Assembly: GCA_052327205.1 (NCBI GenBank)
Contig: CM126213.1
Coordinates: forward strand, 116,994,001 to 117,058,000
From: Somniosus microcephalus
Taxonomy: Eukaryota
Direction: 5' to 3'
DNA: 64,000 bases
Below are positions 5,685-60,832 of the stretch, piece by piece (within the stretch, counting starts at the first letter, position 1; the number at the start of each line of letters is the position of its first letter). Both the position numbers and the translations under genes were made by a program. The notes below the pieces were generated by a model, which saw only the letters and a program-made list of their open reading frames with translations, was not told the DNA's origin and did no database searches.

Positions 5685-5971
5685 CTATTGGGCGTGGATG
5701 TCCATAACCTGTCCCCCCACACTGGGGTCTACAGGATTTAACATTGTGGGGCTTTGTGCTGACATTGGCATTCCAGGGTGAGGCGGGGGTCCTCCATGCA
5801 TCATCATGGCCGGGTGATGTGGGTGACTCGGGAGATAGGAATGCATTGGGGGTCCGTGTCTTAACTGGGCAGGGTGTGGGGTCATCTGGGGAGGAGTGTA
5901 ACTTGGCTGTGCCATACTCATACCCATAGGACCACCCTGAGATACATAGTCCCCTGGCATGCCTTGTAAAC
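5685..5971 (-). CDS. MEIS2: MEIS2 terminal exon coding part, long C-terminus used when exon 12a is skipped
   Basis: ttttcag| then (G)LQGMPGDYVSQGGPMGMSMAQPSYTPPQMTPHP...GGQVMDIHAQ-TAG, the typical MEIS long C-terminus. Confidence 0.96.
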
Positions 5972-8649: not shown

Positions 8650-8760
8650 CAGCAGGCCGAATTCCCATATGTTGCTGACCATCCAATACAAAACTTCCCA
8701 TTGGTTGGCCCTCTGGACTGTATGCTGCTCCTTGGCTTACTGAAGGATCAAGAAGAAAAC
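8650..8760 (-). CDS. MEIS2: MEIS2 exon 11 with two alternative acceptors (long form starts 8760, short form starts 8739)
   Basis: Long form: [37 protein letters not shown](G). A second cag| 21 nt downstream removes GFLLDPS. Donor G|gtaagc. The GFLLDPS insert is diagnostic of MEIS2. Confidence 0.96.
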
Positions 8761-9374
8761 CTGATTGTAGTCAAACGTGGACACAGAGGAGAAAGAAAAG
8801 ACATACCAAACAATCAGCAGTTACTCCTGAAACAGCAAACACAATACGTTGTCAAACACCAGAAACTTACATGGAAAGTACCATTAAAGAAATAACTTTA
8901 GCACTGAATGCATTCACCCCACCCCCTCCCCATTTCTGAAAAATCCTGGCAGATAGAAACAGATCAAAGGTGCAACGTTATATTGCAAAAGCACAGTGTA
9001 AAGAGTAGTGTTTCAAAGCATAGCTGCTCTCCCCAATGCCTAGAAGATTTGGAAACCTATTTTATGCAAGAGTTAGGTATTTCTTCTGCTTGCACAGTCC
9101 ATATCTCTTAATGCAAAGATTACATAGCTGGGCATTTTGCCCTGATGTTTCTCAATAAATAACCGTGACTAGTGCCTACACTTTCTTTAATTGCATACTA
9201 AGTATGAAGACATCCAGCCTAACTGTTAATGGGTTTATTCAATCAGTATTATCAAATTACACAAAACTAAGAAAAGTGTTATGCAATGCCTATAATTATT
9301 GTGCAACAATTTAAAATTAGGATGATAAAAAATAAATCATAGAGGCATTTCCTCAAATCTTATTAAGTGCTCTC

Positions 9375-9855: not shown

Positions 9856-10878
9856 GAGAACATTTTTCTTACGTTATCTAGAATTTACTGAGCTTTATCG
9901 TACAGCAGTGAGATTAACTCTTACCCTGCCAATTAAAATCAGAACTCCCTCTGGCTATCAGAGCACATAAGATTAGTGTTTTGGCCTTCCTATTCTGTTT
10001 CACACTAGAGTACCGTTCCTGATCCCAGCAGAGACGCATGTTTGGAAAGCTGTATACAAGTCCCATAAATAAATAACAATTTATAAATTGAAGGAAAGCA
10101 GCGGGTGCAAATCAACATCAAATCAAAGCAGTGTGAGTGACAACCAAAACTTCGATAAAGCTTTTCACAAACCAATGCAGAAGGACACAACTCCATGGTC
10201 AATACAACATGTCCTTTGATTAAATATCGTGAATAAGCCAAATTAAAAAATAGATCAAATTGATTTTTTTTTAGCACTTTTACAATAGGGATTAACTTGA
10301 AATAAAATATATAATTTCACACCAGTTCTAATTTTCAATAAAATGTAGGTAAACAAGAAACTATGGACTATATTTTCCTCTATTGACCAACTTTGGCAAA
10401 AAAATAAGCAGACATGAGAGTATAGTAGAGAACACTGCTTCATACTCATGCTTACATTTCTTGTTAGAATTATTGAATGGAGCAAAATATATTCCTTGAT
10501 GTTTCATCCAACCAACTGGTAAACAGTGAGTGCATTTAGGTTAACTTTAGCAGTAATCTTTTCAAGCAATCCGCAGCTATCATTAATGGTGATTAAACAA
10601 CAGCATTGGTGAAATAAGTAAGCGCATTCACCAAGGAGTTGTGAGCAGTAAGGAAAGCATCAAGTGGCTGCGAAAGACGGCCAGTGAGTCAGCAGCAGTA
10701 CCCACTCAGCAAGCTACTTGTGGTGCAAGGATATTTGCCCAATTACCATTATTAACAGAAATAAAAGCAGCTTCAGGAAAGTGAGGGTGGGGAATTCCAG
10801 TTGGCACCAATTAGTGAGGTTGCTCCCTGCACTGGAATTCTGGGACAAAAGCTCTCCCAGAATGCCTGGCTGCCAGGT

Positions 10879-10967
10879 TTATTTACCAGGTGAAGGAACT
10901 CCTGAAGAATAACTTGATGTGGATTTGTGCCTGCGGGGCTTGAATACAGATACTACTTGGGACTTGC
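10879..10967 (-). CDS. MEIS2: Putative alternative MEIS2 C-terminus from read-through of the exon 10 GC donor (29 aa)
   Basis: In-frame GKSQVVSVFKPRRHKSTSSYSSGVPSPGK-TAA, with AATAAA (10878-10883) overlapping the stop. Resembles the MEIS1 read-through tail as recalled from memory. Confidence 0.6.
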
Positions 10968-11026
10968 CTGCTCGATTTGACTGGTCGATCATGGGTTGTA
11001 CTATTCTTCTCCTGGCATTAATAAAC
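10968..11026 (-). CDS. MEIS2: MEIS2 coding exon (exon 10), homeodomain recognition helix; ends in a GC donor
   Basis: Translates (W)FINARRRIVQPMIDQSNRA. Acceptor tttcag|, donor CAG|gcaagt (GC-AG intron); 59 nt. Confidence 0.96.

Positions 11027-39712: not shown

Positions 39713-39814
<102 letters not shown>

Positions 39815-60508: not shown

Positions 60509-60832
<324 letters not shown>

Follow-up and report, generated by a model that had tools for sequence, protein, structure and literature searches.

The reading frame beyond MEIS2 exon 10 in Somniosus microcephalus: very probably exon 10', a known extension between two same-phase splice donors

The 3' part of a MEIS gene lies on the minus strand of a 64,000-nt stretch of the Somniosus microcephalus genome (contig CM126213.1; hereafter the window), with an exon 11 of the MEIS2 type and an exon 10 whose translation is the same, over 19 residues, as that of solved MEIS2 homeodomain chains found in a PDB search. 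The question raised by this locus is what becomes of the frame past exon 10, which runs on for 29 codons, GKSQVVSVFKPRRHKSTSSYSSGVPSPGK, before it reaches a TAA at 10881-10879. A sequence-only reading of the locus had described the exon end (CAG/GCAAGT), the 29-codon frame, its stop and the overlapping AATAAA as we also find them, and had taken the whole for a hidden third C-terminus of MEIS2, reached when a weak GC donor is passed over. Here, we argue that the segment is very probably Meis exon 10', 81 nt between two 5' splice sites of the same phase, with use of the GT site predicted to insert 27 residues and use of the GC site likely to skip them in most transcripts. The element is already known, having been published in 2011 and being present in shark and ray gene models.

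The two donors, set out with the other features of the gene in Table 1, cut at 10967 (GC) and 10886 (GT), 81 nt apart and both in phase 1. Scored over 11 positions against the U1 consensus, the GC donor has 8 matches, the GT donor 8 and the exon 11 donor 7, so that the GC site, previously called weak, equals the second donor. As the distal donor is in phase with the GC donor, and both exon 11 acceptors are in frame with both exon 10 donors, its use adds 27 residues and keeps everything downstream; these residues would come to lie between the homeodomain and the activation domain, the latter being retained. Most transcripts would use the GC donor, and a minority passing through the GT donor would gain a disordered linker of 27 residues. 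For the window MEIS2 itself, this donor usage is predicted from orthologous gene models, which are themselves predictions.

Table 1. Features of the MEIS2 gene in the window (all on the minus strand)
Feature	Position	Strand	Basis or remark
Exon 10 (end of homeodomain helix 3)	10968..11026	-	AG acceptor ending 11027; translation
Proximal 5' splice site, GC type, within Gly-Lys-Ser codons	10960..10970	-	CAG/GCAAGTCC; 8/11 U1 matches
Exon 10', 81-nt in-frame extension, 27 residues	10887..10967	-	Homologs from sponge to mammals; database junctions
Distal 5' splice site, GT type, phase 1	10879..10889	-	CTG/GTAAATAA; GT at 10886-10885; coincides with database junctions
AATAAA, donor positions +4 to +9 (first three bases = +4 to +6)	10878..10883	-	Likely incidental
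Exon 11, two acceptors 21 nt apart (starts 8760 or 8739)	8650..8760	-	Sequence
Exon 12b, coding part (long C-terminus)	5685..5971	-	Translation matches MEIS2 models
Exon 9 (homeodomain, TALE loop)	39714..39790	-	Translation
Basic stretch, homeodomain start, exon 8	60626..60646	-	Translation

A phase-1 donor of the form G/GTAAG translates as Gly-Lys, and the distal donor, if left unspliced, reads Gly-Lys-stop; the exon 11 donor of the window MEIS2 also translates as GK. We infer that the 'GK-stop' end of the frame is the distal donor in translation. At +6 and +7 this donor has T and A, the bases that pair with U1, so that a TAA or TAG stop needs one more base only. For genes from which exon 10' has been lost, a hand count gave 25 distinct donor 9-mers, once six that keep the motif and one that is spliced were dropped, and in 17 of these an ordinary donor reads GK. 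At the proximal donor the order is the opposite one. Codons for Gly-Lys-Ser (GGY AAG TCN) spell a donor, and corals encode the same three residues as GGA AAG TCA, with no donor, so that the codons probably came first and gave rise to the site, the difference between GC and GT then being a silent change in the glycine codon. In the accessible text of Irimia et al. 2011 (Genome Biol Evol 3:551, PMC3140891), where exon 10' was named and described as an ancestral coding sequence that became an alternative 5' splice-site extension, Nematostella and Trichoplax have one continuous exon, the alternative donor lies inside it in bilaterians, and the upstream site is GC in 46% of the genes studied.

The same arrangement is found in a second copy in the same genome (L002), recovered by DNA search, whose translation matches that of a named shark Meis1 model without a difference over 46 residues. 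Both donors are repeated there letter for letter, which upholds the earlier view that the GC donor is real, and the TAA is kept, with AATAAT in the position of the hexamer. In ungapped comparison with the window, 60 of 81 nt agree over the segment and 8 of 8 just after it, followed by 11 of 60, with 18 of 60 in the upstream intron; as identity drops right after donor position +8, conservation stops where a donor ends. The 27 codons of the segment give, as point estimates, pN 0.21, pS 0.39 and a modest dN/dS of 0.45 between the paralogs, and pN is 0 in exon 10. Other loci differ. In L007, presumably MEIS3-like, the donor is of the GT type and the frame is closed three codons later, with no exon 10' frame, and the teleost-like L008 reads G/GTAAATAC, with no stop and no hexamer (AATACA); the latter was the sole vertebrate-type locus with the segment among the 80 of 329 loci kept from a metagenome scan. 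In two invertebrate-type loci, L063 and L067, the GC donor after exon 10 is kept and the coding sequence of exon 10' is gone. Intron 10 of the MEIS1 paralog, as placed by an exon 11 match (G000:C3:129462514-129507916), measures about 45 kb as against 2.2 kb in the window MEIS2; for most Meis1 genes, table 1 of Irimia et al. (PMC3140891) gives 1.1-1.8 kb.

How the segment is joined in proteins was read from database models. A 48-residue read-through query found 193 proteins, of which the best 120 were classified; exon 9 is joined in 73 of these, and 27 of the 73 have the 27 residues followed by exon 11, with none ending in GK-stop. The set grew to 270 proteins, 200 of them with exon 9 joined, through a further search and the listings of two clusters, which give no more than 15 members per cluster. 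Among these 200, 61 carry the 27 residues and go on to exon 11, 30 skip directly to exon 11 (not a frequency, the searches having selected for the segment), 12 read past the second donor and 97, mostly invertebrate, fall elsewhere; a GK-stop ending occurs in 0 of the 200 listed. The GK-stop frame does appear in nine hits, P0009 and eight others, all of which lack exon 9, as is expected of frames called on unspliced DNA. P0009 matches the MEIS1 tail that the sequence-only reading had put forward, and the similarity search it had proposed does return relatives of the peptide from sponge to mammals; the vertebrate models among them that keep the frame mostly splice on to exon 11. In place of a hidden third C-terminus, we thus find the published exon 10'.

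Within cartilaginous fish, the best-matching proteins among those listed are sawshark models. Meis2a models with the same 27-residue insert joined to exon 11 come from the sawshark Pristiophorus japonicus (P0001, which differs from the window in 2 of the 27 residues), Chiloscyllium plagiosum (XP_043553936.1), Pristis pectinata (XP_051880896.1) and Hypanus sabinus (XP_059811746.1); all are automated predictions with no function attached. Both exon 11 acceptors are represented, exon 10' being joined to the short one in P0001 and to the long one in P0004 and P0123. The MEIS2 models that carry the segment keep it in frame in six shark and ray species and show it frameshifted in two, so that the earlier expectation of an intact chondrichthyan frame holds for six of eight species and fails in the others, where an assembly error is possible. 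The exceptions are the models of Mobula birostris (net +1 nt) and Narcine bancroftii (net -11 nt), represented by P0021, P0122, P0124 and P0126, with shifts inferred from the protein; in Mobula hypostoma exon 10' is in frame. The frameshifts may reflect an assembly error or a recent loss. Among the matches listed there was no protein of human or mouse, where a GK-stop isoform may therefore still be annotated.

Some models read through both donors. Twelve ray-finned fish Meis1 models run past both (P0091, P0206-P0213, P0245, P0247 and P0259), 11 of them ending in intron 10, with tails that extend from a few to about 35 residues further and are unrelated in length and sequence; several models of the unclassified group resemble those ending in intron 10. 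Such models bear on a second account, in which intron 10 is sometimes left unspliced and the GK-stop frame is an unselected by-product. Under the rule of nonsense-mediated decay, by which a stop well upstream of a junction marks a transcript for removal, these RNAs would be eliminated if the later introns were spliced. Unrelated tails fit retention, or the annotation of pre-mRNA, and phase-1 donors commonly read GK in any case, but the teleost models may instead be annotation failures at the GC donor. The differing tails, together with the fact that in some species such a model is the sole one, suggest annotation failure, and real retained or terminated transcripts are possible. We regard intron 10 retention as a tentative explanation, which can coexist with that of exon 10'.

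The stop and the hexamer had also been read as a selected unit. If the GC donor were skipped and the transcript cleaved at AATAAA, a truncated MEIS2 would result that keeps the homeodomain, lacks the activation domain and could act as an antagonist. In its most elaborate form, the distal donor would be a stop/poly(A) cassette exposed at low U1 occupancy, yielding a shark MEIS2 that binds DNA and is dead for activation, with the teleost Meis1 read-throughs as the same switch bearing drifted tails. Several points agree with such a form: stop and hexamer are present in the window, one TGTA lies within 100 nt upstream of AATAAA, the TAA is found in both paralogs of the genome, teleost Meis1 models ending in intron 10 do exist, and Meis C-termini were truncated repeatedly, by other routes (PMC3140891). 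The stop after GK is kept in 9 of the 18 read-throughs of vertebrate type that were chosen by eye and is missing from the other 9, which continue (7 as GKY, 1 as GKW and 1 as GN). The hexamer is found in one of three vertebrate-type DNA loci with the segment, being missing from L002 and L008. Conservation of stop and signal, to be expected if the form were selected, is thus not seen.

The AATAAA is weak evidence alone, as the minus strand of the window holds 54 copies (0.85 per kb) and this one overlaps the donor at +4 to +6. A second AATAAA (9239) and an ATTAAA (9191) stand late in intron 10, at 9186-9239 on the minus strand, within the chance rate. Downstream of the hexamer, a U- or GU-rich element was sought with a simple composition test and none was found: the T fraction is 0.29, 0.20 and 0.24 in three windows (0.20 at 20-60 nt), not above the background of about 60% A+T. 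Moreover, U1 suppresses cleavage close to where it binds (telescripting), and the hexamer sits under such a site. To this may be added the absence of a GK-stop ending from the exon-9-joined proteins and the variation of the teleost tails. In the mouse long-read set (available S2 Data of PMC13379096), which has seven Meis1 transcripts, four with protein sequence, exon 10 is reached by two proteins, each of which skips exon 10', and none reads through, two known transcripts being without sequence there. A literature search by listings, with most subscription journals outside it, brought up no report of a MEIS isoform made by read-through or by intronic polyadenylation. We therefore consider a selected truncated MEIS2 very improbable, and the cassette version just as remote.

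What the 27 residues of exon 10' are for is a separate matter. Homologs are found in Nematostella, coral, Hydra, a nematode, a hemichordate and a sponge, and the window tail agrees with that of the hemichordate (P0011) at 19 of 27 positions. Judged by sequence, the motif is far older than the MEIS1/MEIS2 split, as its presence in cnidarians and a sponge places it well before that event, and together with the agreement between the paralogs this substantiates the claims, made before any database was consulted, of homology to the MEIS1 segment, an origin before the duplication and conservation as coding sequence. The residues include V-x-V-F-K, a basic patch, a run of serines and a Ser-Pro. In a set of 94 distinct tails that had been chosen for this core, the G, V, V, F and K columns are kept in 87-94, at least four K/R occur in 86, a basic kinase-type site in 63 and a distal Ser/Thr-Pro in 64; the window tail gives no match to the basic kinase site pattern. 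The usual nuclear localisation signal of MEIS we take to be the basic stretch of exon 8. In the accessible text of PMC13379096, the NLS is placed with the homeodomain. The NLS-like patch proposed for the tail does not match an ELM-type pattern for the classical monopartite core, which 11 of the 94 homologous tails fit. An AlphaFold model of P0001, built from 52 sequences, has a mean pLDDT of 52.8, falling below 50 at residues 373-411, which contain the segment, with no docked structure, and none of four PDB matches covers it. Exon 10' may encode a motif in a disordered linker, its conserved V-x-V-F-K core accompanied by basic residues in a patch and by Ser or Ser-Pro sites, that tunes the activator through phosphorylation or partner binding, a proposal to which we give about even weight.

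Alternatively, jawed vertebrates might keep the segment mainly as RNA or DNA sequence, for instance as a splicing element between the donors, with the peptide a decaying relic whose rare inclusion is inert. Irimia et al. (PMC3140891) report very low vertebrate inclusion by RT-PCR, with exon 10' skipped in all 27 human ESTs and all 6 from mouse, and at least six vertebrate losses, including every Meis3 gene and also Meis2 in zebrafish, in Xenopus and in mammals; inclusion is constitutive in nematodes and substantial in amphioxus and hemichordates. Low inclusion and repeated loss are what a relic would show, as are the frameshifted ray models described above. Likewise, of 27 residues, mammal-type MEIS2 tails (one named, three assigned by likeness) share 10-15 with the hemichordate tail as against 19-22 in sharks and rays, which would fit decay of exon 10' in MEIS2 lineages. 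Mammalian Meis2 is reported as having lost the coding meaning of exon 10' (PMC3140891), and the wolf Meis2 model P0014 has a degenerate yet in-frame segment of 27 residues. At the nucleotide level, the count of synonymous changes that separate the paralogs is 0 of 7 in codons 4-15 (10923-10958) versus 8 of 17 in exon 10, but the comparison was made post hoc, at p = 0.054, and L008 did not reproduce it (p = 1.0 and 0.25). A run of about 11 bases in the same interval is common to the window and L008 and is possibly a splicing element. Against a relic stand the 61 models with exactly 27 codons and the MEIS1 tails, which share 20-23 of 27 residues with the hemichordate; fixed length and MEIS1 identities suggest constraint at the level of the protein, at least in MEIS1. 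On balance, we consider it unlikely that vertebrates retain the segment chiefly as nucleic acid.

Exon 10' as found here is of little significance as it stands, being known since 2011 and present in existing models. A small question remains, raised by Irimia et al. in 2011 in leaving the function of exon 10' open (PMC3140891), namely why vertebrates keep a rarely included motif that extends from sponge to mammal. Sharks with an intact exon 10' in both MEIS1 and MEIS2 offer a useful outgroup for dating its losses and testing the role of the motif. Were the truncated form real and regulated, a major HOX/PBX cofactor would carry its own antagonist within its gene, which would be relevant to development and leukaemia.

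Three known systems invite comparison. In the composite, or bleeding, terminal exons produced by intronic polyadenylation, an unused donor is followed by a stop and then a poly(A) hexamer, and the window shares all three; it differs in that its hexamer falls within a second donor and is not conserved, and in having no T/GT-rich element downstream. The homeodomain-less MEIS1-HdL isoforms (PMC13379096) resemble the proposed antagonist in being natural MEIS isoforms that oppose the full-length protein, but they lose the homeodomain and not the activation domain, and in the accessible text exon 10' is not involved. The closest likeness is to exon 10' as described by Irimia et al. (PMC3140891), with which the segment shares its position, a GC upstream donor, an in-frame extension, an ancestral coding sequence, and the pattern by which certain vertebrate Meis1 and Meis2 genes keep it and Meis3 has lost it. 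The accessible text has no cartilaginous fish in its species list and mentions polyadenylation 0 times. Sponges are absent from the same list, and the motif is found here in the sponge Oscarella (P0114); the genome of the window keeps an intact segment in both MEIS1 and MEIS2.
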